From Candidatus Woesearchaeota archaeon (GTDB taxonomy: Archaea; Nanobdellota; Nanobdellia; Woesearchaeales; GW2011-AR4), in contig JAGVXR010000056.1 in NCBI GenBank assembly GCA_018303645.1, positions 1-35,723 on the forward strand: a stretch of 35,723 bases of DNA, in the 5' to 3' direction. The notes beneath the pieces were generated by a model that searched no databases, had not been told where the DNA came from, and saw only the letters and a program-made list of their open reading frames with translations. The position numbers and the translations under genes are program-made. Position 1 is the first letter of the stretch, and each line of letters begins with the position of its first letter. Positions 10,895 to 28,958 of this stretch are shown one piece after another.

Positions 10895-10934
10895 GATTTT
10901 TATATACACCTTATTTCTTTACATTGTGGTTACA

Positions 10935-12770
10935 ATGCCTATATTAAGCATAATTTTATTTTTTTTATACACTTGGGGATTTGGCACTGGATTGGGCTTA
11001 TTAGTCAGGGAATCGGAAGATTTTCTTGAACGAAACCTAATGAGAATAGGAACCGGCTTAGGGGCAATGCTTGCATTTGGCCTTCTGCTTAACCTTCTTA
11101 GGATTCCATTGGACTGGAGAATATTCTTATCAATAAGCCTTTTGCTGGTTTTTACCAAAATTTACAGGGATTTTAAGAAAGAAAGAATCATTTTTGATGT
11201 TAAAAAAATTTCAATAAGCATCTTCCCATTGCTCATGCTTGTCTTGTTTTTTGTTTCTCTTTATATGTACGAAAAAGGGGCATTCGCATACCCTTACCTC
11301 GAGGATGACGACTCCTGGAGCCATGCCATGGGAGTAAAGTATGTGTCCGTTGAGAAAACTGTTTTTGCCGGAGCTGGAAATGGTTTTTACATGGATCCCT
11401 ACCCACCAGCATATGACATGCTTATGGGAATTTTGCACCAGACAAACAACTCAGTTTACTGGACTCTCAAGTTTTTCAATGCACTGATTGTGTCATTAAG
11501 TATAGTATTCTTCTATTTTTTTGCAAAAACATTTACAAATAGTTCAAAAAAGGCATTATTTGCGACGTTTGCCCTGTTTGCAGTCCCTGCCTACTTGAGC
11601 CATTTTATATGGTCGATAGCCTTGACGATGCCTTTGTTCTTTGCATCGTTTTATGCAGCTGAAAAAATTAAAGATGACAAAAGATGGTTTATAGCGGCAG
11701 CAATAGTTATTGCCGCAACTTTAACTTCATCTCCTACGCACAGTGCTTATTTTGGCCTGTTTTTCGTAATATACCTTATTGGAAAGGCTTTAGTCCAAAA
11801 GAAGTTTTTGGTGTACGAATCTCTTGCAGGATTTTCAGGCTTATCATTGTCTTTCTTGTTATGGTGGCTGCCGATGATTATGACTCACAGCCTGAAAGGC
11901 ACGATAAACAGCTTTTTAGGCACACAAAGCGTAATAAATATAGCAGGCACAGGAGACAGAATATACAATTTATCTGATTTTCTCTTTGCCAAAAAAGTCA
12001 ACATGATTAATAATCCAATAGGAATAGGCATTGTTCTTTCTATTTTAACTGTCATCGGGCTTATTTTTATTATTATAAAATACAGGGATATGCTAAAGGA
12101 AGGCAATTACTGCAAGCTTGTCATGGTGCTGTGGTTTATCTTTGCTTTTTATGCAGTTAATGCCGCGAGATTTCCAATCAAATTGTCTCCGTTTAGGGCA
12201 TGGATGCTGCTTGCAATTCCAGTTTCTTTATTATCCGGAGAAGCTGTAAACCTGATTGATAATTTTTCCAAGGCGGCTGCCAGCAGTATTGCAAAGTCAA
12301 AAGTAGCAATAAAGGCAGCGTCATTTCTCATGCTTGGGCTAATAGCTTACAGCATTGCCATGACATCATTTGTCCAGAAATATACGGTAAATACAGCCAT
12401 GTGGCCTCCAGGAGCATTCTGGGCATCAAACGAGGAGATACAGGGATATATGTGGTTTAAGGACAATATACCTTCCGGAACAATGGTGTTTACATTTTCA
12501 AACAACGCTTTGATACTTGGACTGGATAAGTTTATATGCCATTGGTGCGATGACGTGAGAGACTATCAACGTACTGGATTTAACGAGAGCGCAGGCGCTA
12601 TAAATTCCTGGATGAGGGGCAATGGCTATAACTACCTTGTTGTAGATGGCCAGACTGCAAGAATCCATGGCAGCAATGAGACAAACAACAAAGTTAATGA
12701 ATTATTGGGTTCAGGCCTGCTCAGGCCTGTGCACTCTACCGGAGGATTCATATTATTGCAGATAGTATAA
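10935..12770 (+). CDS. Polytopic GT-C-type membrane glycosyltransferase (ArnT/PMT/AglS-like); not an AglB oligosaccharyltransferase
   Basis: About 611 aa from the ATG. The ORF track starts 9 nt earlier at a GTG. A TATA-like gatttttatatacacc lies about 25-35 nt upstream of the ATG. There are more than 10 predicted TM helices, an acidic first-loop motif YLEDDDSWSH, and a soluble C-terminal domain. No WWDYG motif. Confidence 0.5.
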   Translation: MPILSIILFFLYTWGFGTGLGLLVRESEDFLERNLMRIGTGLGAMLAFGLLLNLLRIPLDWRIFLSISLLLVFTKIYRDFKKERIIFDVKKISISIFPLLMLVLFFVSLYMYEKGAFAYPYLEDDDSWSHAMGVKYVSVEKTVFAGAGNGFYMDPYPPAYDMLMGILHQTNNSVYWTLKFFNALIVSLSIVFFYFFAKTFTNSSKKALFATFALFAVPAYLSHFIWSIALTMPLFFASFYAAEKIKDDKRWFIAAAIVIAATLTSSPTHSAYFGLFFVIYLIGKALVQKKFLVYESLAGFSGLSLSFLLWWLPMIMTHSLKGTINSFLGTQSVINIAGTGDRIYNLSDFLFAKKVNMINNPIGIGIVLSILTVIGLIFIIIKYRDMLKEGNYCKLVMVLWFIFAFYAVNAARFPIKLSPFRAWMLLAIPVSLLSGEAVNLIDNFSKAAASSIAKSKVAIKAASFLMLGLIAYSIAMTSFVQKYTVNTAMWPPGAFWASNEEIQGYMWFKDNIPSGTMVFTFSNNALILGLDKFICHWCDDVRDYQRTGFNESAGAINSWMRGNGYNYLVVDGQTARIHGSNETNNKVNELLGSGLLRPVHSTGGFILLQIV

Positions 12771-14250: not shown

Positions 14251-15804
14251 TCAAATTTTTAATCTCGAGACTGCCTCTGAAATAGATGCTTTTTCCTTCT
14301 CAGTCTCGTTATTCTTTGATATCTTTCTTTTTCCTGTTGCCGATTTATAGGGAGGAGGATTTTTTATGAAAATATTTTTTAATATCTTTCCGTCAAAATC
14401 AGTATCAGCTTTCAATCCATAAGTGTAAACTACTGTTGGTGCAATGTCAATCAATTCAGCATTATCAATCTCAAAATGCTCCTTTATGTTCTTTCCATAA
14501 GCCAGGAAAATACCATACTGCTTATGATCCCCTACTTCTTTAGGGTAATCTGCAATAGCTTTAGGACCAAAACCTGGGTTTATATTATAACCGTCAGAAG
14601 GGCTAATTATTAATTCAGGAGCCTTGATATTCCCTTTTCCCTTATATATTTCATCACGGTAATAAACAGCTTCTATGATATTTTTTCCTGTTTCCGGGTC
14701 TTTTAATGATAAAAGCTTTTTTTTTATCAGCCTCATTATCTGTTTTTTCTTATTAGTATTTTTTTCAATAACTTTGATGCCTCTTCCGCCTTCATAAAGG
14801 GTGAAATACGCTTTTGTATTTTCCTTGTCTATTATTTTTGTTGTGGATGGAATAATCTTTGCCAGCTCTTTTACAGGAAGAACCTTTACCATTTGCGTAA
14901 AGATGGGATAACCTGCCAGCTTGCTGACTGTTTCATGGGTTATGTTGAATTTTTTCAGGATTCTCAAAAAAAATCCCTGCCTTTTTGCTTTTTCATCTTT
15001 TACCCTTTTTAACAGGCCCATCTCCTTAAGAATCTGGTTTATCCTTATGTATTTTTTCATGCCGCCAAATCCATGATCAGACATAACAAAAACACAATCA
15101 AAATTTTCAATCCACTTTGAAAGATTTACATCAACTTCCTTATAAATAAAAAGAATTCCACTGTTATTATTTTTGCCCCATAATCTATGGCCTACCGTAT
15201 CCGGATCACCATAAACTGCAACAAACAAGTCATAGTCATAATTTTCCATCAGATAATCAAAGCCTCTTGATCTGATTTTAACATTCTCAACAAGCTTCTT
15301 CCAGTATTTTGGCTTGTGCATGTTGTTGATTATCTCTGATGGAGGATCCGGAAGAAAATCCCCGACATTTTTCCTGACTTCATTAAATACTTGAGGGGGG
15401 TTAAAGGGATTAACTCCTTGCGGAGTTAAAAATCCGGACATAAGAATCCCATTGATTTTTTTCGGAGGATAGCAGGCAGGCATGTTCAAGATAATTGATT
15501 TTAGGCCATAGCTCTCTAAATATTCCCAAAACCCTTTTTCTTTAATGTTATAAGACGTTGAAAGTTCATCTTTTGAGAGAAAGAAGCCTGTTATTCCGTG
15601 CTTTCCAGGATTTTTTCCTGTCATAAATGTAGGCCATGCTGGTAGAGTTACAGGAGGTATCGTTGATTTTAATCTTCCAAAAACACCATTTTCAATAATC
15701 TTCTTGAAAGTAGGCAATTTTCCTTCATTTACCCACTTTTCCATAAGCTCTGGGTCTCCGCCATCAAGCCCAATTATAAGAAGTCTTGCTTTTCTCTTTG
15801 ACAT
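14251..15804 (-). CDS. Alkaline-phosphatase superfamily protein (type I phosphodiesterase / nucleotide pyrophosphatase-like), cytosolic
   Basis: 517 aa with no signal peptide. The full set of AP-superfamily metal and nucleophile motifs is present: IIGLDGGD, PPVTLPAWPTFMTGKNPGKHG (Thr nucleophile context), GDPDTVGH, MSDHGF, VGDHKQYG. Confidence 0.75.
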   Translation of the reverse strand: MSKRKARLLIIGLDGGDPELMEKWVNEGKLPTFKKIIENGVFGRLKSTIPPVTLPAWPTFMTGKNPGKHGITGFFLSKDELSTSYNIKEKGFWEYLESYGLKSIILNMPACYPPKKINGILMSGFLTPQGVNPFNPPQVFNEVRKNVGDFLPDPPSEIINNMHKPKYWKKLVENVKIRSRGFDYLMENYDYDLFVAVYGDPDTVGHRLWGKNNNSGILFIYKEVDVNLSKWIENFDCVFVMSDHGFGGMKKYIRINQILKEMGLLKRVKDEKAKRQGFFLRILKKFNITHETVSKLAGYPIFTQMVKVLPVKELAKIIPSTTKIIDKENTKAYFTLYEGGRGIKVIEKNTNKKKQIMRLIKKKLLSLKDPETGKNIIEAVYYRDEIYKGKGNIKAPELIISPSDGYNINPGFGPKAIADYPKEVGDHKQYGIFLAYGKNIKEHFEIDNAELIDIAPTVVYTYGLKADTDFDGKILKNIFIKNPPPYKSATGKRKISKNNETEKEKASISEAVSRLKI

Positions 15805-15876: not shown

Positions 15877-15900
15877 TAGAAAACTTTATAAATATAAATA
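15877..15900 (+). promoter_or_regulatory. Candidate BRE/TATA promoter of the RHH-cysDN operon
   Basis: tagaaaactttataaatataaata: an A-rich BRE-like stretch followed by TTTATAAA. The same 16-mer, TAGAAAACTTTATAAA, recurs at 20623-20638. Confidence 0.45.
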
Positions 15901-15939
15901 TATTCCAATTATATTTAATTGAGATATATTTATATTTAT
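15888..15939. promoter_or_regulatory. Perfect 16-bp inverted repeat (ataaatataaatatat / atatatttatatttat) with a 20-bp spacer; candidate operator
   Basis: The left arm 15888-15903 overlaps the TATA box. The right arm 15924-15939 ends 1 nt before a GGTGA Shine-Dalgarno (15941-15945), which sits 5 nt upstream of the RHH ATG at 15951. Confidence 0.5.
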
Positions 15940-15950
15940 GGGTGAAAAAA

Positions 15951-16175
15951 ATGAAAGATGCCAATATAACAACGGTTTCTATACCAAAACCACTAGCGGA
16001 AAAAATAAAGAACAGGATAAAAGGCACAGGCTTTAATTCTGTATCAAGCTATGTGACTTACATCTTAAGGGAAGTAATGTCAAGCCTAGAGCAGAAAGAC
16101 AAAAGGGTTGTGTTTACGAAGGAAGAAGAGGAAACAGTAAAGGAAAGGCTCCGAGGCTTAGGGTATCTTGATTAA
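15951..16175 (+). CDS. Ribbon-helix-helix (CopG/Arc/MetJ-type) DNA-binding protein
   Basis: I start at the internal ATG preceded by GGTGA. The ORF-track N-terminal 35 aa is AT-rich promoter sequence. Sequence is MKDANITTVSIPKPLAEKIKNRIKGTGFNSVSSYVTYILREVM, i.e. a beta strand plus two helices typical of RHH, followed by an acidic tail ending RLRGLGYLD. Confidence 0.7.
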   Translation: MKDANITTVSIPKPLAEKIKNRIKGTGFNSVSSYVTYILREVMSSLEQKDKRVVFTKEEEETVKERLRGLGYLD

Positions 16176-16198
16176 TAAACTTTTCTGGAGCGGATAAT

Positions 16199-17020
16199 AT
16201 GAAAAACGAGCTTGAAATGGATCACCTAGACTATTTGGAAAGCAGGAGCATTTACATCATCAGGGAAGCATATGCAAAATTCAAAAAAATCGGCATGCTA
16301 TGGTCAATTGGAAAAGACTCAACAACTTTAGTTTGGCTTGCCAGAAAAGCCTTTTACGGCAAAATTCCTTTTTCTCTTGTTCACATTGACACGGGCCATA
16401 AGTTTCCTGAGATGTATGCTTTCAGGGATGAATGGGTCAAGAAATGGGGCTTAAATTTTGTTGTAGGCAGGAATGAAGAGGCAATCAAAAGAGGCGTAAT
16501 ATGCAAGCCTGGAGACACTGAAGCATGCTCAGTGGAGCTTAAGACAAAAGGATTGCAAATGACAATCCAAGAACACGGCTTTAAGGCATTGATATTGGGC
16601 ATAAGAAGGGATGAGCATGGCATTAGGGCAAAGGAAAGGTATTTCTCTCCACGGGATGAGCAGTTTAGATGGAACTACAAGGACCAGCCTCCTGAATTGT
16701 GGGACCAATTCAAATCAAAACAGAAAGAGGAAACTCATATAAGGGTTCACCCGCTGCTTGACTGGACAGAGCTTGATGTGTGGATGTATATCCGAAGGGA
16801 AGGCATACCAATAAACAGCCTTTATTTCGCAAAAAATGGCTATAGGTACAGGAGCTTGGGATGCAAGACATCAACAAGCCCGATAAAATCAGATGCGGAT
16901 ACTGTAGATAAAATAATCGAAGAGCTGAAAGTGACAAAGCTTGCTGAAAGGTCCGGCAGGGCACTTGACAAAGAGCAGACATATATGATGCAGAAGTTAA
17001 GGGCGCTTGGCTATATGTGA
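16199..17020 (+). CDS. cysD: Sulfate adenylyltransferase subunit 2
   Basis: 273 aa and collinear with E. coli CysD as I recall it: [14 protein letters not shown]-loop [38 protein letters not shown]...RAKER, PELW, and a C-terminal ...KLRALGYM (E. coli ends ...KKRQGYF). Confidence 0.9.
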
Positions 17021-17024
17021 TAAA

Positions 17025-18308
17025 ATGGCAAACAGCAAAACACCGGACAAAGATGGAAAAAACAAAATTGATGAATTTATGAGTTTCGTGATTGTAGGCC
17101 ATGTTGATCACGGAAAATCAACACTTATAGGGAGATTATTGTACGATACAGATAGCCTGCCTACTGGAAAAATTGAGGAAATCAAAAAAGTCTGCGAGGA
17201 GCTTGGAAGGGAACTTGAGTTTTCCTATGTAATGGACCATCTTGAGGAGGAGAGGCAGCATAATATAACAATTGATACAGCCCAGATTTTTTTCAAGACA
17301 AAGAAAAGGAGATATGTAATAATAGATGCTCCTGGTCATAGGGAATTCCTGAAGAATATGATTACCGGGGCAAGCAGGGCAGAAGCCGCAGTTCTTATTA
17401 TAGATGCAAAAGAAGGGGTTATGGAGCAGACAAAAAGGCATGCTTACATTTTGCATCTCCTTGGGGTAAAGCAGGTTATTGTTGTTATAAATAAGATGGA
17501 TTTGGTTGGATATAACCAGGGAAGATTTGATGAAATAAGCAGCAACATTGAAAATTTTCTAAATTTAATAAATATAATCCCAGGTTGCATTATCCCCATT
17601 TCAGCATATTATGGAGACAATATTACAAATAAATCAGAGAATATGGGATGGTACAATGGCCCCACTATCCTTGAAAGTCTTGATACTTTTAAGGTGTCTG
17701 CTGCTTCGCTTGACAAGCCATTAAGGTACGCTGTCCAGGATGTTTACGTTGTGAATGGAAAAAGGATTATAGCAGGAAGAGTCGAAGCCGGAAAAATAGG
17801 CAAGTATGAGGAGATAATTTTTATGCCGTCAAAGAAAAAGGCAAAAGTTGCTTCAATTGAAGTTTTCAATGAGGTCAGGACAAAAGCAGGTGCCGGAATG
17901 TGCATTGGTGTAACAATTGATGATCACCACTTTATTGAAAGGGGGGAAATTGCATGCAGTACGAATGAAAAAAATCTGAAAGAAACCGGAAAATTAAAGG
18001 CAAATGTTTTCTGGCTTGGAAAAGAGCCATTAAGTCTTAATGAAAGAATTACCTTCAAATGCGCAACAAAGGAAAGTGAATGCGTGATTGAAAAGATCCA
18101 AAGGAAATTTGATTCTTCGACATTGCAGGAAATCAGGGAAAAACAGGATCAAATTGGGGAAAGGGAGGTTGGAGAGCTTATTATAAGAATGGACAACCCA
18201 GTTTTTGTGGATAATTTTAACGATGTAGCTGAACTGGGAAGGTTTGTTCTTGAAAAAAACAACGATGCTATTGCAGGCGGCATTATACTCGAGCATAATT
18301 TTGATTAG
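17025..18308 (+). CDS. cysN: Sulfate adenylyltransferase subunit 1 (GTPase), without a fused APS kinase domain
   Basis: ATG 4 nt after the cysD stop. The ORF-track start is a TTG inside cysD. G1 [10 protein letters not shown]3 DAPGHREF, G4 NKMD, then EF-Tu-like domains II/III. At 427 aa there is no room for a CysC domain. Confidence 0.88.
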
Positions 18309-18334
18309 AAACTAAGAATTTGTGGGTGTATACA

Positions 18335-19039
18335 ATGTTGGTTATATTGGGGCTTGATGGTCTTGAATACAATTATGTTGAGGAATTTGGTTTCAAGGAG
18401 CTGAAGCAGGCATATTACGGGAAAACAGACATAAGCGAATTTGAAAAGCCGAGAACCTTGGTTATATGGTCAAGCTTCATTTCTGGGAAAAATATGGAAA
18501 AAGAGGTTTTGTCACAAAAAGATTTCTGGGATTTCAAAGTCCCTATTGAAAAAACTTTATTCTCAAAATTCAAAAACTTTAAGGCAATTGACGTGCCTGG
18601 ATTTTGTTTTGATGCAGAGCAACATAAGAAGGAAAGGCAGGGCTTGAAGGAGTTCTTCGATAAGAAAATCAGCATAGAAGACTATGATAAACTTATTTTT
18701 ACACACCACAAAAAAATAAAGCAAGAGTTTTTTGAGGCCCTTAAGAAAGATTATAATGTAGTCATGGGCTACTTTGGGCTTGCTGATGTTGTAGGTCATT
18801 TGAGTTTTGGAATTAAGTCAAAAATGAAGATGATTTATCAAGAGCTTGATGAAATAGCAAAAAAAACAAAAGAAATGGCAGAAGGCAATGTCCTTATTTT
18901 CGCCGACCATGGCATGGAGGCAATTGGCAGGTTTGGAGACCATTCAAACAATGGCTTTTGGTCAACAAATAAAGATTTTGGAATAAAAAACCCAAAATCA
19001 ACAGATTTTTATAATATAATAACTGGAAAAATGATATAA
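18335..19039 (+). CDS. Minimal (234 aa) alkaline-phosphatase-superfamily enzyme, function unknown
   Basis: Start at the ATG giving MLVILGLDGLEY. It retains the same motif set as the 517-aa paralogue: LGLDG, PRTLVIWSSFISGKN, LADVVGH, FADHGME, FGDHSNNG. It lacks about 280 aa of insert/cap sequence. Confidence 0.6.
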   Translation: MLVILGLDGLEYNYVEEFGFKELKQAYYGKTDISEFEKPRTLVIWSSFISGKNMEKEVLSQKDFWDFKVPIEKTLFSKFKNFKAIDVPGFCFDAEQHKKERQGLKEFFDKKISIEDYDKLIFTHHKKIKQEFFEALKKDYNVVMGYFGLADVVGHLSFGIKSKMKMIYQELDEIAKKTKEMAEGNVLIFADHGMEAIGRFGDHSNNGFWSTNKDFGIKNPKSTDFYNIITGKMI

Positions 19040-19042
19040 AAA

Positions 19043-19264
19043 ATGGAAGAATATCATATTAGGAGCATACTAAAGGCGGTAAGCTGGAGAATTTTTGCCA
19101 CTGTAGTGACCATATTTATAGTATTCATCTTTACAGGCAATTTTATAATTTCTCTTGGTGTAGGTTTTGTAGAAGTATTGTCCAAGATATTTTTTTATTA
19201 TGTCCATGAGCGTATATGGAACAAAATCAAATGGGGAAAAATTTATGCAGAAAAAATTCAATAA
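19043..19264 (+). CDS. DUF2061-family small membrane protein
   Basis: 73 aa. RSILKAVSWRIFATVVT...TG......VGFVEVLSKIFFYYVHERIWNKIKWG matches my memory of the DUF2061 consensus (K..sWR...t...TG...e...K...YY.HER.W). It starts 3 nt after the preceding stop. Confidence 0.7.
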   Translation: MEEYHIRSILKAVSWRIFATVVTIFIVFIFTGNFIISLGVGFVEVLSKIFFYYVHERIWNKIKWGKIYAEKIQ

Positions 19265-19272
19265 ACCACAAA

Positions 19273-20181
19273 ATGGATTTGTTTGCGGCTGACATTTATG
19301 CCTCATTTGTAACGATGGAGAAAAAAATTAGCATTAAATGGCCAGAAAACAGGAAATTTGCAGCCTGCCTTAGCCATGATGTCGATGTCCCCTTTAAATA
19401 TAATCTAGTAGGCTTGCTTAAAGAAGTAAAGCAAAACCCTAAAAATTCACTATCCCCTTTTTATAACTTTATTACACGAGAAAATCCTTATTGGCAGTTT
19501 GAAAATATTATGGAAATTGAAAAAAGCTACGGCTTTAAATCAACATTTTTCTTTTGCGCAAAAAGAAGGCACATTAAAGATCCTTATTATCACATAAAAA
19601 ACAATAAAATACAAAACATAATAAAAAAACTTGATAGGGAAGGATTTGAAATAGGGCTGCATGGAAGCTATCTGTCTTATAACAATAAAAAATATTTGGA
19701 AGAAGAAAAAAAAATACTAGAGTCTATACTAAAGAAAAAAGTAATAGGAAACAGGCAGCATTTTCTCAATTTCAATCAAAAAACTCCAAAGATTTTGGAA
19801 GAATTGGGGTTTATTTATGATAGTTCATTTGGAAGCACTAAAAAAGTAGGATTTAAAAATAACAAGTACTATCCATTTTATTATGGCAAATTGCTTGAAA
19901 TACCTTTAAATGCTATGGATGCTGTCCTTTTCAACCAGTCCAAGTCTTATGAAAAGGCATGGCAAAAGATAAAAAAACTTATAGACGATGCCGAAAAGAA
20001 GTCAACATTAATAACCTTTAACTGGCACCAGCGTGTTTTTTACGAGCCTGAATTCAGGGGATGGGGAAAACTATATATACAGATATTAGACTACATTAAA
20101 AGAAAAAATGCTTATGTTAATACTTTAGGCAACATAGCAAAATTGTTTGAAAATGGAAGAAGAGTCGGATATAATAAATAA
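19273..20181 (+). CDS. Polysaccharide deacetylase-like (CE4-type) protein
   Basis: Start moved to the ATG (MDLFAADIY...) 8 nt after the DUF2061 stop. CLSHDVDVP, FEIGLHGSY and RQHFL resemble the Asp/His metal-binding motifs of polysaccharide deacetylase-type folds. The family call is tentative. Confidence 0.5.
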   Translation: MDLFAADIYASFVTMEKKISIKWPENRKFAACLSHDVDVPFKYNLVGLLKEVKQNPKNSLSPFYNFITRENPYWQFENIMEIEKSYGFKSTFFFCAKRRHIKDPYYHIKNNKIQNIIKKLDREGFEIGLHGSYLSYNNKKYLEEEKKILESILKKKVIGNRQHFLNFNQKTPKILEELGFIYDSSFGSTKKVGFKNNKYYPFYYGKLLEIPLNAMDAVLFNQSKSYEKAWQKIKKLIDDAEKKSTLITFNWHQRVFYEPEFRGWGKLYIQILDYIKRKNAYVNTLGNIAKLFENGRRVGYNK

Positions 20182-20503
20182 AAGTGAAGTTTTGGTTAGC
20201 CTAATATACAAAATTTGCAGAGGATTGCCAAGGGGAGACGATTTTATGTTTAAATCTCATCTATCAAGAACTGCCATCTTCATTTCTTCTAATTTAGCTG
20301 AAGGGCAAAAAAAAGGTAAAGAAGAATTCAGAGAATACATTAATACATCCATAGAAAGCTTAAAAGAACTTAAAGCCCAATTAAATATGGTCAAAGAAAA
20401 GAATTATGTACAAATATCTGCTTTTGATATAAATAAAGCTTTGGATTTATGTGGCGAATTGGATAAAATGATTCATGAGCTATTACTTAAACTCAATGCC
20501 TAA
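20147..20503 (+). CDS. Four-helix-bundle protein (23S rRNA intervening-sequence protein / Avd-like family)
   Basis: 118 aa. ...LIYKICRGLPRGDDFMFKSHLSRTAIFISSNLAEGQKKG.KEEFREYINTSIESLKELKAQL follows the family pattern (IY..t..fP..E...l..Q.rRaa.Si..NiAEG....s.kef..fl.ia.gS..El.t.l). Confidence 0.65.
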   Translation: MKMEEESDIINKSEVLVSLIYKICRGLPRGDDFMFKSHLSRTAIFISSNLAEGQKKGKEEFREYINTSIESLKELKAQLNMVKEKNYVQISAFDINKALDLCGELDKMIHELLLKLNA

Positions 20504-20705: not shown

Positions 20706-21710
20706 ATGAATATAAATTTAGTGAAGTTTATCAGGAAATACCCTACTCTTAAAAAAATAGGTTCGCTAGTCCTTAATAACAGAGTATCCTCCCTTTTAAA
20801 AAGGAACCAAAGCATAGACTTAACCTTTCCCAAAAGTTTCAATATAGAGCCGACAAACGCATGTAACGTCAACTGCAGTTTTTGTCCTAGGCTGGAGTCA
20901 AGTAAAAGTATAGGATATATGGATTTTGATTTATTCAGGAAAATAATTGATGAGAGCTCAAATTATGGTGGAAGGCATTTCTCATTCTTCAAAGACGGGG
21001 AATCTTTGTTGCATCCTAAACTGCCAGCCATGATAGAGTATGCCAAGAAGGCACATCCTGGAAACACCATAAACTTGAGTACAAATGCAATACTGCTTGA
21101 CGAAAAAAAAGCTGCTGAAATCATAAATGCAGGGTTGGATACAATAAACATGAGTGTTAATGCTGCAACCCCAGAGACCTACAAAAAACTCCTTAACTCG
21201 GATAAGTTTGAAAGAGTGGTTGAAAATGTTAACAATTTTTTAAAAATAAAAAAAGAACTAAATGCTTCTAATCCAGTTGTTACCGTGCAAATGATAGACA
21301 TGGAAGTAGCCCAGAACGATGTCCCGCTTTTTTATCAGACGTGGAATGATAAAGATGTGGTGGTAAGGGTAAGGCCATTCTTGAACTGGACAGGAGTGAG
21401 GAAAGATGAACATGCAGTAAAACGCTCCAGATACCCATGCAATTATCTTTGGAATTTCCCGAGCATTAATTGGGATGGCAGGGTCTCAGTTTGCTGTGTT
21501 GACTACAGTGAAGACGGCATCATAGGAGATGTAAATAAACAGAGCCTTGCTGAGATATGGAATGGTTATACTATAAGAAAATATCGTGAGATGCATCTTA
21601 ACGGAGAATTTGACAAGCTTCCAGTCTGCAAGAACTGTAATGATTGGGCGAATCTCCCGAATATCTGGATAAAAAAACCCTTCCCGAAAAATGGTCAAAA
21701 ATGGCTATGA
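20706..21710 (+). CDS. Radical SAM enzyme with C-terminal SPASM/twitch-type Cys cluster
   Basis: 334 aa. CNVNCSFC (Cx3Cx2C) at the N-terminus of a TIM-barrel-like region (GESLLHP, NLSTNA). The C-terminal segment is YPCNYLW....INWDGRVSVCCVDY....IGDV...SL.EIWNG...R......LPVCKNCNDW. Confidence 0.85.
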   Translation: MNINLVKFIRKYPTLKKIGSLVLNNRVSSLLKRNQSIDLTFPKSFNIEPTNACNVNCSFCPRLESSKSIGYMDFDLFRKIIDESSNYGGRHFSFFKDGESLLHPKLPAMIEYAKKAHPGNTINLSTNAILLDEKKAAEIINAGLDTINMSVNAATPETYKKLLNSDKFERVVENVNNFLKIKKELNASNPVVTVQMIDMEVAQNDVPLFYQTWNDKDVVVRVRPFLNWTGVRKDEHAVKRSRYPCNYLWNFPSINWDGRVSVCCVDYSEDGIIGDVNKQSLAEIWNGYTIRKYREMHLNGEFDKLPVCKNCNDWANLPNIWIKKPFPKNGQKWL

Positions 21711-21800: not shown

Positions 21801-22799
21801 ATGAATTTTGAATTAATTTCTCCAAGCAAAGAAAAATGGAACGATTTTGTAGATAATAACAACCACTCTGATATTTTCCAAAAGTATGAGATGGCCGATG
21901 TATATAACAAGACGCGAAATATGGGGGGGATTAGGCTTGCGGTTTCAGATGGGGAAGGAAAACTCCTTGCATGCATGGTAGTTAAAATGGAATCTAAAGG
22001 TTTTCTAAAATCCCTGACTTCCATATCTATAATAGAGAATGCACCTTTGTATGAGGGGTCTGAGCAAGGAAAAAAAGCAGCAGACTTTCTTATAAAATAT
22101 TATGACATATATATTAAAAGAAAAGCGCTGTATACTATAGTTAAAACGAACAAAAACAAATTTCTGGAGAATCTGTACAAATCAAATGGCTATAAGCAAA
22201 GCGATGGTCTTAACTTTGAGATCAATCTGGATAAGGATGTTGAGGGTGTTTTTAAATCAATACATAAATCAAGAAGAAAGAATATCAGAAGGTCCGAGAA
22301 AAAAGGAGTGACTGTAATTGAAGCGGAAAAAGATTCGCTGCCGGGATTTTATGGAATCTTAAAAGAAACATATGATAGTATTAATATCCTAATCCCGGAT
22401 ACATCATATTTCAATGAAACTTTTAATTTGATGCCGAATAGCGTCAAATTATTCTTGGCAAAATACCAAAATACGATTATTGCTGGAAGGATTGTGCTCT
22501 TCTACAAACATAAAGTTTTTGATTGGTATGCAGGAGCATCTTCAAAGTACCTTGGAATTTTTCCAAATGACATTCTAGTCTGGCACGTCTTAGAATGGGG
22601 ATGCAAGAACGGCTTTAAGTTATTTGATTTTGGAGGTGCGGGTGTTCCGGAAAAAGAGTATGGTGTCAGGGAATTTAAAAGAAGATTTGGAGGGCAGTTG
22701 GTAAAATTCAGCTCTTTTAAAAAAATACATAGACCGTTAACAGCCAGTTTTGGGGCAAAGTTTTTTTCATTTTACAGGAAAATATTAGAAAATGGATAA
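21801..22799 (+). CDS. FemAB-family (GNAT-fold, aminoacyl-tRNA-dependent peptidyl/aminoacyl transferase-like) protein
   Basis: 332 aa. The C-terminal half, LFLAKYQNTIIAGRIVLFYKHKVFDWYAGASSKYLGIFPNDILVWHVLEWGCKNGFKLFDFGGAG....YGVREFKRRFGGQLVKF, follows the FemX/FemAB pattern (...y.gas......n..l.w..i.wa...G...fDfgG......gl..FK..fGg). Confidence 0.7.
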   Translation: MNFELISPSKEKWNDFVDNNNHSDIFQKYEMADVYNKTRNMGGIRLAVSDGEGKLLACMVVKMESKGFLKSLTSISIIENAPLYEGSEQGKKAADFLIKYYDIYIKRKALYTIVKTNKNKFLENLYKSNGYKQSDGLNFEINLDKDVEGVFKSIHKSRRKNIRRSEKKGVTVIEAEKDSLPGFYGILKETYDSINILIPDTSYFNETFNLMPNSVKLFLAKYQNTIIAGRIVLFYKHKVFDWYAGASSKYLGIFPNDILVWHVLEWGCKNGFKLFDFGGAGVPEKEYGVREFKRRFGGQLVKFSSFKKIHRPLTASFGAKFFSFYRKILENG

Positions 22800-23445: not shown

Positions 23446-23537
23446 GCGTCTGCAAAAAACCAAATCATTCATTAAAATACAAAAACAGAAAAGTATTTAT
23501 ATCATAACTTTTGTTATCAAAATTAAAGAGGGTGAGC

Positions 23538-24134
23538 ATGATTTTTACTAAATCAAAGATATTTCTATTAATTTGGACAATATTATCAACAATAGGCATC
23601 ATTTCTGCAATAGTTTTGGATAATAATGTAACAGTCAATGAAATCCAAGACTGCACTACAGAATTTTATGATGAAACAGAGGATGTTTTTGGCTATGTTA
23701 CTAGAGAAAGAAATGTATATGATAATTGTATTTATTACCATAATTACACGCTTTGCTTGAATACATCAGGAGCAAATACCGATTGCTCTCAAAAACAGCT
23801 TGTTTATAATGTAACATGTGCAATTGGAACCGAATCTTATCAAAGCTACGAAAAAGTCAGCGAACAGGTAGTTCAAAAAAACAAGACTATATGCAATAAA
23901 AGAGCTTATACAATTGATATAGCTGACTCTACAAAGAATATTAATTTTTCTAAAGCAGGGTATTATTGCAGCTTAGAAGGCAATATAGTAACTTGTGATT
24001 CTGTCCATGATGGCAATGGTGACGGCAAATGCAAAAGCGGAGAAACATGCATTAAATTTGAGATTACAAGCCAAGGGATAAATACGTTGCAAAAAAGAAT
24101 AGATTCAGTTGCCTTAAAAGATTCCTGTAGTTAA
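23538..24134 (+). CDS. Secreted or membrane-anchored Cys-rich protein (11 Cys), possibly truncated by a frameshift
   Basis: Start at the ATG preceded by gagGGTGAgc. The TATA-like aagtatttatatca lies about 35 nt further upstream. The N-terminal sequence is MIFTKSKIFLLIWTILSTIGIISAIVL (signal peptide or anchor). The mature part carries 11 Cys, several N-x-S/T sequons and DGNGDGKC. Confidence 0.6.
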   Translation: MIFTKSKIFLLIWTILSTIGIISAIVLDNNVTVNEIQDCTTEFYDETEDVFGYVTRERNVYDNCIYYHNYTLCLNTSGANTDCSQKQLVYNVTCAIGTESYQSYEKVSEQVVQKNKTICNKRAYTIDIADSTKNINFSKAGYYCSLEGNIVTCDSVHDGNGDGKCKSGETCIKFEITSQGINTLQKRIDSVALKDSCS

Positions 24135-24455: not shown

Positions 24456-27400
24456 TTGGTTAATGCTAACTTATTTAGCAATTCTTCTTGGCTTGATAAT
24501 AATTTAACAAATGCGCAATATGGCACATTTAGTACAGTTGCTTTCGGAGACATAGACAATGACGGCAATAAGGATTTTGTATTAAGCGGTTGTAGGAGTG
24601 GGGGGCTATCTGGTTGTTCCGCCTCAGACGCCGAGCCAACTAGAGTTTATTTAAACAATGGAACTGCTTTGAATTTTAGTGCTGTATGGTCTCAAAATCT
24701 TTCTGCGTTAGGTACTGGTTCTGCAGTTTTAGGGGATATAGACAATGATGGTGATTTAGATCTATTATTAGATGGTACTGGTATTTCATTAACTATTTAC
24801 ATTAACAATGAAATAACTTTCACTCAAAACTCTACTTGGGAATCAGGGCCAATCAACGCAAGCGCACATGAATCAGGTTTTAGTATGTTAGGTGACGTAG
24901 ACAATGATGGTGATTTAGATTTGATAACTGCTCCAGTTTTAAATAAAAATGTTTTATTAAACAATGGTTCCACGTTCATAAATAATGTTTCTTGGGGAAA
25001 TGACATTACAGAAATATCAGCCCCGAAAACAGATCTCTTAGATTATGACAATGATGGTGATTTAGATCTTATAACTCTTGGTTTTGGAGGCAGTAACCAA
25101 TTTTTAAATAATGGAACAGCCTTTTCTTTGGACCCTAACTTGAATGGTGGTATTGGTGGCGGCGAAAGACATTCTCAGGTAATTGGAGATATAGACAATG
25201 ACGGCAAAATAGATTATTTAACAGTAAGAGAAGATGCTTCTTGCGGAGAAGGTGTTTTCATTAACTCAGGAGGTTTTTTTATCAAAAATTCCACGTGGGA
25301 GTCTTTTGCTGGTAAGTTTTATAGTGCTATGGTTTTAGGAGATTACGATAATAACGGTTACTTGGATTTAGTTATTAATGGCCAGTGTGGAACAACATCA
25401 AATATATTGTATACAAATAATGGAACCACCTTTAATAATAATCAGACACTCCAATCTACCCAAACAGATACTCAGGTATGGGTTGATGTAAATAAAGATG
25501 GAAAACTTGACTTATTTAGTATGATACCTATAGTGTATATAAACAATTTATCAACTACAAACACTCCACCATCACCATCAACAGTTTTAAATGTAACTTT
25601 TGACAGAGACAAAGATTTAATTAACTTTTCATGGAATGCTGGCTCTGATACAGAAACACCAGCAGCAGGGCTTTATTATAATCTTAAGATTGGAACAAAT
25701 TCTGGTGGGCATGAAATTGTTACGGGAGTTTATGGAAGTATATCCTATAATAGTGTACAAGGTAGTAGAACTTCCGGTTTCTTCGGCAATATGATGCAGA
25801 GAAAAATAATTTTATTAAAAAACACAAGGTTCAGGGAATCAACAACTTATTATTGGTCAGTGCAGACGATAGATACTGGATTGGCTAATGGTTCATGGTC
25901 TGGGGAATACATTTATAATACAACTGCTGACTGGACTGATCCTGTCATAACATTAAACAAGCCAATAGACGTCTTCAATACTTCTAATTTTACTGTAATA
26001 TTTAATGCAACTGTTTACGATATAGTGAATTTAAGCAATGTTTCCTTGTATGGAAACTGGTCAGGAAGCTTTGCTTATAATGGAACTAACAGCTCTGAGG
26101 TAAATAACACAAATTATATTTTTGAAAGAAACCTTACAAGCATAGGAGATGGCACCTATAAATGGTTAATAAATGCATGCGATAATTTAAGCAACTGCGT
26201 TAATACAAGCGCAAGAACATTTACTATAGACACAACTGCTCCTGTTGTCAGCCTAAGCAGCCCTGCAAATGATTCCTGGCAAAATAATCCAAGCATAAAT
26301 TTCCAGTTTACTGCAACAGACTCATTAATACAAGCATGCACTCTTTATGGCGATTTTAACGGAACATTTCAGGCAAACTTAAGCAATAGCTCTATGATTT
26401 CCGGAACGCAAACAACATTTAACCTAAACTTGCAAAACGGAACTTTCCTCTGGAATGTCCTATGCAATGATACAGCAGGAAACAATGCTTTCAACGCAAC
26501 AAACTTTACAATAAATGTAGATACAGAAAAGCCGGCAATAAATATAAATTCTCCTGTAAATAACTTCAACACAAGCAATGTAAATGTAACAATTAACTGG
26601 ACTGTAATAGATAATTTAGACAATAATCTTCAGTGCAACATAACCATAAATGGAACAATAAACCAGAGCAATATTCCATCTGCAAATGGAACGCATACAA
26701 ACATAACAATACCTAACTTTAATGATGGCTTTTACTTCTGGAATGTCTCATGCGCAGACAATGCAACAAATGTTAATGTAAGCATAACAAGAAATTTCAC
26801 TATAGACACTATTTTTCCAAATATAAGCTTAGACTATCCATTAAACAATTCATGGTTAAATACACAGAATACAACCTTTAACTTCACCTTGACAGAAATA
26901 AACCCAAAAAGATGCCTGTTGTTTGCAAACTTTTCTGGGAATTTTGTTGAAAACCAGTCTATCGACCCTATAGATGGAAGAAATAATTTCTCTAAAAAAA
27001 CAATAGCTGACGGGAACTATATCTGGGAAGTTTTTTGCAATGACACCGTAAACCAGGAGAATTCAAGCCAAAATTTTACTTTAAATATTGATACTGTATT
27101 GCCTGCTGTAAGGTTAGAGCATCCTTTGAACAACACCAACTTTTCCTCTAATCCTGTGCAGTTTAACTTTACTGCTACCGAAGCTAATTTAGATTCTTGC
27201 AGCCTGTATTTGAATTCATCAGGATGGCATAAAAACACGACAAAAACAACTATGGTCTCAGGCACTGTGTTTAATATAGCCAATCTTACAATATCGGATG
27301 GCAACTATTTCTGGAATACCGTATGCAATGACTCTGCTGGAAATGAGGCCTTTAATGCGACAAATTTGACTTTTAGCGTAGATACAACAAACCCTGTTGT

Positions 27401-28958
27401 AACTGTCTTATCTCCAAAAAACAGCACAACTATAGCCACTTCCAATGTTGTTGCGCAAGCTTCCTTCTCTGATCAAAATGCTGTAAACTGCCAGGCAAGG
27501 ATTGATTCAGGGGCAGTGCAGGAAATGAGTGGGGATGGAACAACAGCAGGAACAGCCTCCTTTACCTTTACAAGCCAGAGTGATGCTGAGCATACTATAA
27601 ATATTAATTGTACTGACACCTCTGCAGCAAAATTCTCCACAATAAAAAACACAACATTTACAGTAGATTCGACTATAACAGATACTTCAAAGCCGAACCT
27701 TACCATAGAATTCCCTAAAAACAGCTCTATAATAACCTCTTCTCCGGTTAATTTTGAATTAAATTATACAGATGAAAATAATGTTAACTGCAAATTGATT
27801 AATGGAACTTCCATATATGATTTTGGCAATGACAACGCAACATCAGGAACTGCAAACCTGACTTTAAATTTGCCGGATGCAAACCATACTGTAAAGGCAA
27901 ACTGCACTGACACTTCCTCAAACCAGAACAACATAACCTTAAGCACCTGGAACTTCTATTTGGACAAAACCTATCCAGTTGTAAGCCTGATAAGCCCTGC
28001 AAACAACACAAGGCAGACATCAAGCTCAACAGTAACATTTTCCTATAATGTTACAGATTTGGGAATTAAGAACTGCTCTTTGGTTATAGATGGAATTGTT
28101 AATTTAACAGGCACTTCAATAGCTGTTGATAGTCCCCAATCTTTTAGTAAGTCTTTGGCTAATAATAACTACAACTGGAGCGTTAGCTGCGCTGATAATG
28201 CAGGCTTGACAAACAGCAGCACAGTCTTCAATTTAACTGTTAGCTTTACAGAAAGCAGCGGAAGCTCTGGAAGCTCTGGCGGTGGAGGCGGTGGTGGTGG
28301 AGGGGGAGGCGGCGGAGCAGCTGCCACAACAGCAGCAGGGGTAAGCAAAACTCAGGTATGGCAGACATTGCCTGAAGGAAAAACTACAATGAAAGTCAAT
28401 AAGGAGGAAATAAGCATAGATGAGATAGAGATTAATGTGAAAAATCCTGCCAATAATGTTGAGATTAGCGTAACAAAGCTTGATGAAAAGCCCGTTGTTG
28501 CAAGCGAAATAGAAGGAAAAATTTACCAGTACATACAAATTAATAAGAAAAACATCAAAGATGAGGATATAAGTAATGCAGTAATTAATTTTAAAGTGGA
28601 AAAAATATGGCTGATTGACAACAATGCTGATGAAGATGGTGTTGTTTTAAGCCGCTTTACAACTTTCTGGGAAGAGCTAAGCACAGCTAAAATTAATTCA
28701 GATGCAAAATATACCCATTATAAGGCACAAACCCCTTCATTCTCATATTTTGCTGTATCTATTAAAGAGAAAATAATCCAAGAAGCTGAAAATATAACAA
28801 TAAGTGAGATTATAAATACCACAGAGCCGGAAGCAAATATAATAGAAGAAGTTCAAGAAGAAATGCCAAAGAAAGATTATAATTCTTTAATTACAATAGC
28901 TGTTATTTTTGTTTTGGTTATTTTAGTTGTTTTTTTCTATCGTAAGAAGAAAAGTTAA
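24456..28958 (+). CDS. Giant (about 1500 aa) N-glycosylation-sequon-rich surface protein: FG-GAP beta-propeller, FN3-like domain, 8 Ig-like repeats, Gly13 linker, PGF-pre-PGF-like domain and C-terminal TM anchor
   Basis: A single uninterrupted ORF. The annotated start is a TTG; see the findings for an upstream in-frame signal-peptide-like extension with no canonical start. The C-terminus is LITIAVIFVLVILVVFFY (28887-28940) followed by RKKKS. Confidence 0.85.
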   Translation: MVNANLFSNSSWLDNNLTNAQYGTFSTVAFGDIDNDGNKDFVLSGCRSGGLSGCSASDAEPTRVYLNNGTALNFSAVWSQNLSALGTGSAVLGDIDNDGDLDLLLDGTGISLTIYINNEITFTQNSTWESGPINASAHESGFSMLGDVDNDGDLDLITAPVLNKNVLLNNGSTFINNVSWGNDITEISAPKTDLLDYDNDGDLDLITLGFGGSNQFLNNGTAFSLDPNLNGGIGGGERHSQVIGDIDNDGKIDYLTVREDASCGEGVFINSGGFFIKNSTWESFAGKFYSAMVLGDYDNNGYLDLVINGQCGTTSNILYTNNGTTFNNNQTLQSTQTDTQVWVDVNKDGKLDLFSMIPIVYINNLSTTNTPPSPSTVLNVTFDRDKDLINFSWNAGSDTETPAAGLYYNLKIGTNSGGHEIVTGVYGSISYNSVQGSRTSGFFGNMMQRKIILLKNTRFRESTTYYWSVQTIDTGLANGSWSGEYIYNTTADWTDPVITLNKPIDVFNTSNFTVIFNATVYDIVNLSNVSLYGNWSGSFAYNGTNSSEVNNTNYIFERNLTSIGDGTYKWLINACDNLSNCVNTSARTFTIDTTAPVVSLSSPANDSWQNNPSINFQFTATDSLIQACTLYGDFNGTFQANLSNSSMISGTQTTFNLNLQNGTFLWNVLCNDTAGNNAFNATNFTINVDTEKPAININSPVNNFNTSNVNVTINWTVIDNLDNNLQCNITINGTINQSNIPSANGTHTNITIPNFNDGFYFWNVSCADNATNVNVSITRNFTIDTIFPNISLDYPLNNSWLNTQNTTFNFTLTEINPKRCLLFANFSGNFVENQSIDPIDGRNNFSKKTIADGNYIWEVFCNDTVNQENSSQNFTLNIDTVLPAVRLEHPLNNTNFSSNPVQFNFTATEANLDSCSLYLNSSGWHKNTTKTTMVSGTVFNIANLTISDGNYFWNTVCNDSAGNEAFNATNLTFSVDTTNPVVTVLSPKNSTTIATSNVVAQASFSDQNAVNCQARIDSGAVQEMSGDGTTAGTASFTFTSQSDAEHTININCTDTSAAKFSTIKNTTFTVDSTITDTSKPNLTIEFPKNSSIITSSPVNFELNYTDENNVNCKLINGTSIYDFGNDNATSGTANLTLNLPDANHTVKANCTDTSSNQNNITLSTWNFYLDKTYPVVSLISPANNTRQTSSSTVTFSYNVTDLGIKNCSLVIDGIVNLTGTSIAVDSPQSFSKSLANNNYNWSVSCADNAGLTNSSTVFNLTVSFTESSGSSGSSGGGGGGGGGGGGGAAATTAAGVSKTQVWQTLPEGKTTMKVNKEEISIDEIEINVKNPANNVEISVTKLDEKPVVASEIEGKIYQYIQINKKNIKDEDISNAVINFKVEKIWLIDNNADEDGVVLSRFTTFWEELSTAKINSDAKYTHYKAQTPSFSYFAVSIKEKIIQEAENITISEIINTTEPEANIIEEVQEEMPKKDYNSLITIAVIFVLVILVVFFYRKKKS
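24513..25545 (+). repeat. Seven FG-GAP/VCBS-type Ca-binding repeats (integrin-alpha-like seven-blade propeller)
   Basis: The seven motifs are FGDIDNDGNKDFVL, LGDIDNDGDLDLLL, LGDVDNDGDLDLIT, LLDYDNDGDLDLIT, IGDIDNDGKIDYLT, LGDYDNNGYLDLVI and WVDVNKDGKLDLFS, spaced about 45-60 aa apart. Three share an identical 21-nt DNA core, GACAATGATGGTGATTTAGAT (24741, 24900, 25047). Confidence 0.75.
25929..28250 (+). repeat. Eight tandem 91-105-aa Ig-like repeats, each with two conserved Cys
   Basis: Repeat boundaries, set at the recurring ..(I/V)DT..P|.(V/I).L.SP.N junction, are 25929, 26244, 26535, 26820, 27105, 27396, 27696, 27978 and 28250. The conserved skeleton is SP.N....(N)..F.F...D.....C.L.......(about 25)....L.DG.Y.W.V.C.D.AGN...S....F..D. 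Repeats 6-7 form a divergent subtype. The DNA copies are diverged. Confidence 0.75.
28341..28760 (+). other. PGF-pre-PGF-like domain of the giant protein
   Basis: NVEISVTKLDEKPVVASEIEGKIYQYIQINKKNI.DEDISNAVINFKVEKIWL.DNNADEDGVVLSRFTTFWEELSTAKINSDAKYTHYKAQTPSFSYFAVS matches the archaeal pre-PGF pattern as I recall it (...kP......g.vy.y..i......i..a.i.FkV.ksWl.....d...v.L.R....W.eL.T......d.y..Y.A.tpgFS.FAi). No PGF-CTERM sorting signal follows it. Confidence 0.6.

Follow-up and report, generated by a model that had tools for sequence, protein, structure and literature searches.

A conserved archaeal CysD–CysN module with a minimal alkaline-phosphatase-superfamily enzyme, a candidate source of activated sulfate for glycan sulfation

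In bacteria such as E. coli, P. syringae (structure 1ZUN) and M. tuberculosis, the sulfate-activating CysD–CysN(–CysC) systems place a PP-loop CysD side by side with a GTPase resembling EF-Tu and EF-1alpha. Agl7 (HVO_2046) of Haloferax volcanii is needed for the sulfation of DolP-hexose, and it may be a member of the alkaline-phosphatase (AP) superfamily. Deletion and heterologous expression have identified Agl30 (VNG1056C) and Agl31 (VNG1057C) of Halobacterium salinarum as AP-superfamily N-glycan sulfotransferases, in a paper that mentions neither 3′-phosphoadenosine 5′-phosphosulfate (PAPS) nor a sulfate donor and draws no link to cysDN (Zaretsky et al. 2025, PMC11980604). Here we analyse a 35,723-nucleotide (nt) stretch of DNA from a Candidatus Woesearchaeota archaeon (hereafter the window), in which cysD and cysN share an operon with a 234-amino-acid (aa) AP-superfamily protein, mini-AP, inside a glycan island. 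The underlying module is widely conserved in archaea and apparently undescribed, as the literature that we found holds no description of it. That AP-superfamily enzymes fed by this module sulfate glycans is the reading we prefer, at a probability of roughly 0.55.

The operon lies on the + strand. It opens with the module's conserved first gene, identified from the table of open reading frames (ORFs), for a 74-aa ribbon–helix–helix (RHH)-like protein (15951-16175). This is followed by cysD (16199-17020), for the catalytic subunit of sulfate adenylyltransferase; by cysN (17025-18308), with another possible start at a TTG at 17007; by the gene for mini-AP (18335-19039), which resembles nucleotide pyrophosphatases/phosphodiesterases (NPPs) and matches PF01663 in part; and by a gene for a 73-aa DUF2061 protein (19043-19264). 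A deacetylase gene and a seventh ORF complete it. Successive genes are separated by 23, 4, 26, 3 and 8 nt and finally overlap by 35 nt, the same order and spacing in the ORF table as in a preliminary description of this DNA, whose family calls from cysD to the deacetylase were reproduced by Pfam and NCBIfam profile searches. The larger, divergently transcribed AP-superfamily paralogue that it listed is a 517-aa PF01663 protein (3.7e-37; 14251-15804, − strand), here called bigAP.

CysD matches PF01507 at 8.5e-42 and scores 359.4 bits against NCBIfam NF003587, well over the curated cut-off of 195. It aligns with 1zun_A at 5.7e-65, its C terminus falling opposite the ...KKRQGYF of P. syringae, and a C-terminal ...GY[FM] is common to bacterial CysD and that of the module. 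From its family membership it follows that CysD would make adenosine 5′-phosphosulfate (APS) from ATP and sulfate. In several related loci (numbered with the prefix L) CysD is about 700 aa long: L005 4617-6755, L010 4726-6801, L085 6484-8607 and L117 3293-5416. The insert in L005 is annotated as an intein on weak Intein_splicing and LAGLIDADG matches, and the inserts of the other long CysD proteins are called from length. The gap between cysD and cysN is 4 nt in the window, and the two genes are adjacent in about 100 loci. CysN (427 aa) consists of a GTP_EFTU domain (2.8e-49), a domain 2 and an eEF1A C-domain; its G motifs, including NKMD, can be read intact in the translation, and the Pfam scan found no PF01583, in keeping with the earlier statement that it carries no fused APS kinase. 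Its score against TIGR02034 (335.5 bits) falls 0.6 below the cut-off of 336.1, that against the EF-1alpha subfamily model is 354, and its best match in the Protein Data Bank (PDB) is archaeal EF-1alpha (3wy9, 290 bits, against 253 bits for CysN, 1zun_B). The functional assignment of CysN thus rests on its synteny with CysD; the archaeal type of CysN may have branched off separately from archaeal EF-1alpha. The module therefore shares the CysD–GTPase pair with the bacterial systems and differs from them in having neither an APS-kinase domain nor a gene for one, in a GTPase nearer to archaeal EF-1alpha, in the constant addition of an NPP-like enzyme and a tailed RHH protein, and in lying in a glycan cluster instead of a cys regulon.

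Scanning GTDB genomes, with each species represented once, returned 80 mini-AP loci. They come from DPANN archaea, from Methanoperedens, ANME-2, Methanothrix and other Methanosarcinales, and from Thermoplasmata, Bathyarchaeia, Hadarchaeota and Methanofastidiosum; the bacterial loci belong to Patescibacteria, Saccharibacteria and a few others. When the ORFs of a census set of 83 non-redundant loci were searched with the window proteins, CysN was found in 79, CysD in 69 and the RHH-like protein in 64, often in two copies. Where CysN or CysD is missing, the locus is a contig end or a contig shorter than about 2.6 kb, except for L030, which has no CysN or CysD match in the 481 nt upstream of mini-AP. 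Genome and metagenome scans together gave 119 core loci, including some duplicates between collections (e.g. L072, L125). The order is CysD–CysN–mini-AP in 71 of the 119 and CysD–mini-AP–CysN, an order contributed by the metagenome scan, in 17, and in seven loci CysD and mini-AP stand together with no adjacent CysN, at least five of these having sufficient flanks (L103, L104, L109, L112, L122). All but seven of the 119 core loci link mini-AP to cysD and/or cysN, those seven lying for the most part on short contigs or at contig ends. Mini-AP starts at a median of −4 nt from the CysN stop, which points to translational coupling of the two genes. About 110 related loci carry the core of RHH-like protein, CysD, CysN and mini-AP, mostly in one gene order. 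The conserved unit runs from an RHH gene and cysD through an optional slot (DUF2061, TauE or HIT) to cysN and mini-AP, at times with a second RHH gene. The linkage of cysDN, mini-AP and DUF2061 that the preliminary description expected in relatives thus stands very strongly for cysD, cysN and mini-AP, and does not hold for DUF2061, which only 17 of the 69 complete modules contain.

The same description had called cysDN an orphan pair in this stretch. Within the window it is: the Pfam scan covered the ORFs of at least 100 aa except a few shadow ORFs that overlap larger annotated genes, and none of the cysC, cysH, sulfite reductase and sulfotransferase families came up. The sulfotransferase families PF00685, PF13469 and PF03567 were absent from these window ORFs and from six Pfam-annotated related contexts. 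An E. coli CysC probe, validated by Pfam (PF01583, 7.7e-71), gave no tblastn match in the window or the 83 loci, and the positive control was found. A single CysC, in locus L106, was found next to a core module.

What surrounds the module was counted in 49 loci of at least 12 kb, over genes within 10 kb. At least two glycan-biosynthesis genes are present in 32 of these, and a further AP-superfamily gene in 24, supporting an enrichment of the module in glycan clusters. In L092 the order is Sulfatase, radical-SAM/SPASM, methyltransferases, Sulfatase, cysD, cysN, mini-AP, Wzy and a family 4 glycosyltransferase (GT4), and in L093 it is cysD, cysN, mini-AP, ABC exporter, two Sulfatase genes and GT4, so that PF00884 genes are operonic with cysD–cysN–mini-AP inside polysaccharide clusters. 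In L092 a radical-SAM/SPASM gene adjoins a sulfatase-family gene. PF01663 genes are also found, for a 513-aa protein near the module in L091 and for a 506-aa protein upstream of it in L003. These contexts bear on the usual view of cysDN in DPANN and anaerobic methanotrophic (ANME) archaea, where published work treats the genes as serving assimilation or reduction, with no AP-type partner (PMC6286981, PMC8091004, PMC7906910). On that view the module would feed APS to an APS/PAPS reductase and a sulfite reductase encoded elsewhere, and its position in a glycan island would be coincidental. Besides these annotations, the view has on its side the DUF2061 genes found in true bacterial assimilation operons and the APS/PAPS reductase homologues of some carriers (Methanoperedens, ANME). 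We consider it improbable: within 10 kb the 83 genome loci have neither a sulfite reductase nor a second, cysH-like PAPS_reduct gene, the glycan and AP-superfamily neighbours just counted point elsewhere, and both mini-AP and the C-terminal tail found on some AP-superfamily enzymes (see below) would go unexplained. Many carriers, moreover, are DPANN archaea or members of the candidate phyla radiation (CPR) with reduced biosynthesis.

The large AP paralogue is tied to sulfate activation by a second route. The bigAP family occurs near the module in 16 of the 83 loci, and a Promethearchaeota contig (L173 9001-12440) carries, in a glycan cluster, genes for a tailed RHH protein, a Sat-type ATP sulfurylase, a 462-aa PF01663 protein and CysC; the cluster also has a heparinase II/III-like gene. 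The 462-aa protein is a full-length homologue of bigAP (E = 8e-42), so this Asgard operon links the family of bigAP to sulfate activation regardless of the sulfurylase type. On these sequence relationships bigAP is the best candidate for an acceptor-specific glycan sulfotransferase. As in the Agl30/Agl31 system, AP-superfamily proteins here lie in an archaeal glycosylation cluster and a canonical sulfotransferase fold is missing. Agl30 and Agl31 differ in coming from the PF00884 branch: both AP proteins of the window are PF01663, and sulfatase-family neighbours of the module appear only in its relatives. Two PF00884 proteins encoded near the module, L036 945-3434(−) and L131 310-1791, have Thr in place of Cys or Ser at the formylglycine-motif position (TDPCV and TDSSL, aligned by eye); one of the pair is fused to a GT2 glycosyltransferase and one ends in an LGY tail. 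For the sulfuryl-transfer step the AP superfamily, from which the preliminary description had named mini-AP, offers the strongest candidates, given the Agl30/Agl31 precedent, the PF00884 and PF01663 genes directly beside the module and the tail shared with CysD.

Mini-AP, the obligate third enzyme of the module, matches PF01663 over residues 125-197 only (1.1e-06, 28.9 bits against a cut-off of 23). Its family is tight in length (230-245 aa), with 393 matches at 50-64% identity in DPANN, Thaumarchaeota, MSBL1 and some bacterial metagenome-assembled genomes (MAGs), the closest being Aenigmatarchaeota and Micrarchaeota MAGs (61-64%). In the family alignment D8, N53, D151, H155, D191, H192, D202 and H203 are invariant and T41 is nearly so (Ser in one sequence), and the catalytic motifs align with those of bigAP. 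By inspection the protein has no evident signal peptide or membrane segment and is probably cytoplasmic. Its AlphaFold model (pLDDT 96) finds ENPP5, ENPP4, ENPP7 and the Xanthomonas (Xac) NPP as its best folds in Foldseek, with TM-scores of about 0.5. With these NPPs it shares the bimetallo ligand set, the Thr nucleophile and the Asn; it differs in being 234 rather than about 380 aa long and in its tie to an ATP sulfurylase, and TM-scores normalised to the target are 0.31-0.36, the full NPP architecture being absent. A mini-AP profile gave nothing significant against PDB sequences, and tblastn against a plasmid collection gave no match. Mini-AP is thus not confidently homologous to any characterised phosphomutase or pyrophosphatase family, a homology that would have told against the preliminary description; on its residues and its model it looks like a catalytically competent, minimal NPP-like bimetallo enzyme with a Thr nucleophile.

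A search of a 1.84-billion-protein library with the mini-AP profile uncovered a sister-AP family whose members measure 270-320 aa, carry an insertion of about 50 aa and keep all catalytic residues. Its members (proteins P0176-P0319; metagenome loci L127-L172, from a scan with an alignment of seven sequences) are encoded in glycan clusters, where two or three paralogues often share one cluster, a pattern expected of position-specific transferases. Sister-AP genes sometimes adjoin sulfatase-like genes or the gene of a short (about 225 aa) tailed PAPS_reduct protein (L131 8836-9513). Because the closest relatives of mini-AP are transferase-like, sit in glycan clusters and are tied to CysD by the tail, mini-AP may itself be an APS-using sulfuryl transferase, a proposal to which we give somewhat less than even odds. 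An alternative assigns mini-AP to pulling the unfavourable synthesis of APS forward, either by hydrolysing pyrophosphate (PPi) or by phosphorylating APS at the expense of PPi as a non-orthologous analogue of CysC; the true sulfotransferases would then be other AP-superfamily proteins or canonical enzymes encoded elsewhere. Mini-AP does occupy the operon slot that CysC takes in bacterial cysDNC and in the Asgard Sat–AP–CysC operon, its residue signature is that of phosphoryl transfer, its very high conservation suits invariant small substrates, and CysD–mini-AP pairs with no adjacent CysN would need some other driving force. Yet sister-AP proteins, with their catalytic residues retained and two or three to a glycan cluster, often far from any sulfurylase, are hard to square with a pyrophosphatase, and CysC and mini-AP occur together in L106. 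We know of no described PPi-dependent kinase in the AP superfamily, and we regard this alternative as a serious one, though on balance unlikely.

The proteins of the module are further joined by a C-terminal tail, ...RL+xLGY[LMF], common to CysD, RHH proteins, Asgard CysC and some AP-superfamily enzymes. In the window it ends the RHH-like protein (16140-16175) and CysD (16985-17020), the tail peptide being EEETVKERLRGLGYLD. Archaeal-type CysD closes with ...MQKLRxLGYM, and RHH proteins close with an acidic stretch, or linker, and then ...K[VI]KxRL[KR]xLGY[LIM](D), which in the window reads ...KERLRGLGYLD; the CysC of L173 ends in ...LDKMGYLPN. In a census of complete C termini across all fetched loci, the tail was present in 121 of 126 RHH proteins and 94 of 100 CysD proteins, in 9 of 47 sister-AP proteins, in 2 of 20 sulfatase-like proteins and in 1 of 8 members of a small AP-like group provisionally labelled c29, and in none of 119 mini-AP and 102 CysN proteins; all other ORFs yielded 1 in 5397, a PAPS_reduct protein. 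Among the 150 representatives listed for the mini-AP clade in the 1.84-billion-protein library, 20 have the tail fused to an AP domain. The shared tail probably serves as a docking peptide. The stalk protein aP1 has a C-terminal tail to which archaeal EF-1alpha binds, and by analogy the EF-1alpha-like CysN is one candidate receptor. Against CysN in that role stand the tailed RHH protein of L173, which accompanies Sat and no CysN, and the tails that persist in CysD–mini-AP loci with no CysN adjacent.

The tail-bearing RHH-like protein of the window has no Pfam match of its own; a member of its family scores 23.3 bits against RHH_1 (PF01402), over a cut-off of 20.5. Its AlphaFold model shows a strand–helix–helix followed by a C-terminal helix, with the ParD and PrpA antitoxins as the nearest folds in a match that is not significant (Foldseek E of about 1). 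An N-terminal RHH with a C-terminal helix, which binds the partner in antitoxins, would be common to both. The RHH-like protein departs from the antitoxins in that no toxin gene lies at the module and that its tail matches the CysD C terminus. Its family also keeps 65-80% identity across phyla (498 matches, from DPANN to Asgard MAGs), with a mean column identity of 72%, a conservation that is unusually high for a regulator. Between the two divergent genes, 12 nt before the RHH start codon, lies an imperfect inverted repeat (15888-15939) with 24-nt arms at 15888-15911 and 15916-15939, 92% complementary and separated by a 4-nt spacer. It is a putative RHH operator, and in so AT-rich a region it may have arisen by chance.

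The slot between the other conserved genes is filled in more than one way. The DUF2061 protein of the window (PF09834, 9.5e-19, 68 bits against a cut-off of 23.1) reads by eye as two transmembrane helices. In the census, DUF2061 was found in 17 and a TauE/TSUP permease (TauE) in 27 of the 83 loci. Among the 69 complete modules DUF2061 occurs in 17, TauE in 21 and both in none (P of about 7e-4 under independence, ignoring phylogeny). The two look like alternative solutions to one membrane task (loci L007-L086), and in a few loci a HIT-family gene joins one or the other. In bacteria DUF2061 genes occur in an Rrf2–DUF2061–cysH–cysD–cysN–ferredoxin–sulfite reductase operon, ahead of cysD–cysNC in a glycan cluster, and next to an APS kinase. 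The preliminary description had named DUF2061 as a candidate for sulfuryl transfer; its patchy occurrence, its exclusion with TauE and the assimilation operons of its bacterial copies speak against this, and the bacterial contexts, with cysH–cysDN–sir, a CysNC fusion or APS kinase at hand, rule out a sulfotransferase. DUF2061 would instead be a general, optional membrane accessory of sulfate activation, a supply of sulfate being suggested by the either/or pattern with TauE. The literature that mentions DUF2061 does not address its function. The HIT gene, which sits between cysD and cysN in 6 of the 83 loci, suits a different idea, that another oxyanion such as selenate or thiosulfate is activated, or that APS serves as an adenylyl donor, with mini-AP and HIT as nucleotidyl transferases. 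NPP and HIT enzymes do form covalent AMP intermediates and accept APS. We give this idea hardly any credence, since CysD scores well over the NCBIfam CysD cut-off and sulfate is indicated by the neighbours of the sulfatase family, by TauE and by the Asgard link to Sat and CysC.

The deacetylase encoded after DUF2061 (CE4/WbmS-like; 19273-20181, + strand; PF22537, PF01522) had suggested a parallel with animal heparan N-deacetylase/N-sulfotransferase (NDST): the deacetylase would expose an amine, and mini-AP and/or DUF2061 would then N-sulfate it. A deacetylase gene does adjoin the sulfate-activation genes, and it is co-transcribed, 8 nt after DUF2061; in L003 an unrelated polysaccharide deacetylase gene stands beside the 506-aa PF01663 gene of the bigAP type, about 3 kb upstream of the module. 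Unlike NDST, the window has no PAPS-type sulfotransferase domain, and its deacetylase is not conserved with the module: by sequence search the family occurs in 1 of the 83 loci, the window itself, and is absent from the other core-module loci. The coupling of de-N-acetylation to N-sulfation accordingly finds no following in the relatives. The best NCBIfam match of the protein is VimE-like (2.9e-19, below cut-off), and it resembles UDP-2,3-diacetamido-sugar deacetylases. Given this match, a UDP-GlcNAc 3-dehydrogenase gene (29062-30054; NF040723, 361 bits) and a gene for a FemAB-like acyltransferase (21801-22799, from Pfam), the deacetylase seems to fit a diacetamido-sugar pathway better, co-transcribed with the conserved module and outside it; the FemAB-like enzyme could re-acylate the amine. 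With DUF2061 also removed as a transferase by its bacterial contexts, we hold the NDST-like scheme to be very improbable. The seventh ORF (20147-20503, + strand), left unnamed before, encodes a four-helix-bundle protein of the 23S-rRNA intervening-protein type (PF05635, 1.1e-17; TIGR02436). It was likewise found in 1 of the 83 loci, the window, and it and the deacetylase gene are local passengers specific to the window.

In the glycan sulfation that we favour, CysD, driven by the EF-1alpha-like GTPase CysN, would convert ATP and sulfate to APS, with sulfate supplied or gated at the membrane by DUF2061, or elsewhere by the TauE/TSUP permease. As the module has no APS kinase, the activated sulfate would be used by cytoplasmic AP-superfamily transferases. 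Mini-AP would act directly on the CysD product, in the version we prefer by taking the sulfuryl group from APS at its Thr/bimetal site. The variable AP paralogues would be acceptor-specific sulfotransferases decorating the glycan of the island, here bigAP and elsewhere the sulfatase-like proteins and 280-320-aa sister-AP proteins, and the sulfated glycan would probably end on a sequon-rich surface protein (24456-28958, + strand). The RHH protein probably autoregulates the operon and, through its CysD-like tail, may also contact the enzyme complex. A bolder extension holds that the mini-AP clade, comprising the 234-aa core and its 280-320-aa paralogues, is a new class of PAPS-independent, APS-direct sulfotransferases working in a sulfation metabolon, where the ...RL+xLGY[LMF] docking tail would hold CysD and the RHH adaptor together with the AP-type transferases and with any CysC that is present. 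This we offer as a tentative and rather doubtful proposal.

Several points weigh against glycan sulfation by this route. All the evidence is comparative, and the carriers are without exception uncultured MAGs or enrichments. The six-ligand bimetallo site with a Thr nucleophile is a signature of phosphoryl rather than sulfuryl transfer, and APS attacked in the manner of an NPP would just be hydrolysed, giving AMP and sulfate. The high mean column identity of mini-AP, 54% across phyla, is more in keeping with a small substrate, for instance APS or PPi, than with a glycan acceptor. The two sulfotransferases of Halobacterium, as noted, belong to the PF00884 sulfatase-like branch and not to PF01663 (PMC11980604). 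An APS kinase fused to a cytidylyltransferase-like domain is encoded in L106 (5508-6425), 0.5 kb upstream of RHH–cysD–mini-AP–cysN, and the Asgard operon of L173 carries CysC, so PAPS may be the donor in at least some systems; PF03567 proteins have been reported in some DPANN (PMC11625862). Finally, the neighbours of some loci, L001 for one, are housekeeping genes and not glycan genes.

The remaining genes of the window encode nucleotide-sugar enzymes, GT2 and GT4 transferases, methyltransferases, a Wzx-type flippase and the radical-SAM/SPASM and FemAB-like proteins. The surface protein named above is 1500 aa long, with FG-GAP and Ig-like regions and a C-terminal membrane anchor, and has 90 N-x-S/T sequons, a density of 6.0 per 100 aa where the remaining proteins of the window have 0.68 per 100 aa. 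It is a plausible carrier of the glycan and, by extension, of its sulfated form. Just upstream of it, ORF 23511-24134 encodes a 207-aa Cys-rich protein with six sequons and no family match. The radical-SAM/SPASM gene (20706-21710), found in 1 of the 83 loci, the window itself, was considered as an anaerobic sulfatase-maturating enzyme. Its best NCBIfam matches are other maturases, all below cut-off, and the AP proteins of the window have Thr and lack a C/S-x-P-x-R motif; on both grounds the role was rejected. C–S chemistry of the UDP-sulfoquinovose type was also set aside, as none of the three epimerase/dehydratases in the window scores as such. ORF 10926-12770 (614 aa, no family match) lies upstream of the Wzx flippase gene, a position that parallels that of a 596-aa DUF6541-like gene near the flippase and GT2 genes of L003. 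ORF 30051-30800 (249 aa) aligns with nucleotide-sugar dehydrogenases in their central part alone (PF00984; TIGR03026 positions 99-298 of 413) and may be a truncated or split gene. A UDP-glucose/GDP-mannose dehydrogenase gene (34134-35711, − strand), which runs off the end of the window, contains a LAGLIDADG intein-like insert (PF14528).

For the DPANN, CPR and ANME organisms that carry cysDN, the usual reading of these genes as serving assimilation or reduction sits ill with minimal biosynthesis. A constant AP-type partner and the glycan context suggest that cysDN serves cell-surface sulfation instead, and the module offers candidates for the activating enzymes and the sulfate donor, which have been undefined for the AP-superfamily N-glycan sulfotransferases of archaea. 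If mini-AP does transfer sulfate from APS, this would be new enzymology for the alkaline-phosphatase superfamily, and an APS-direct mini-AP clade would explain why non-assimilating DPANN, CPR and many methanogen-related archaea keep cysDN.

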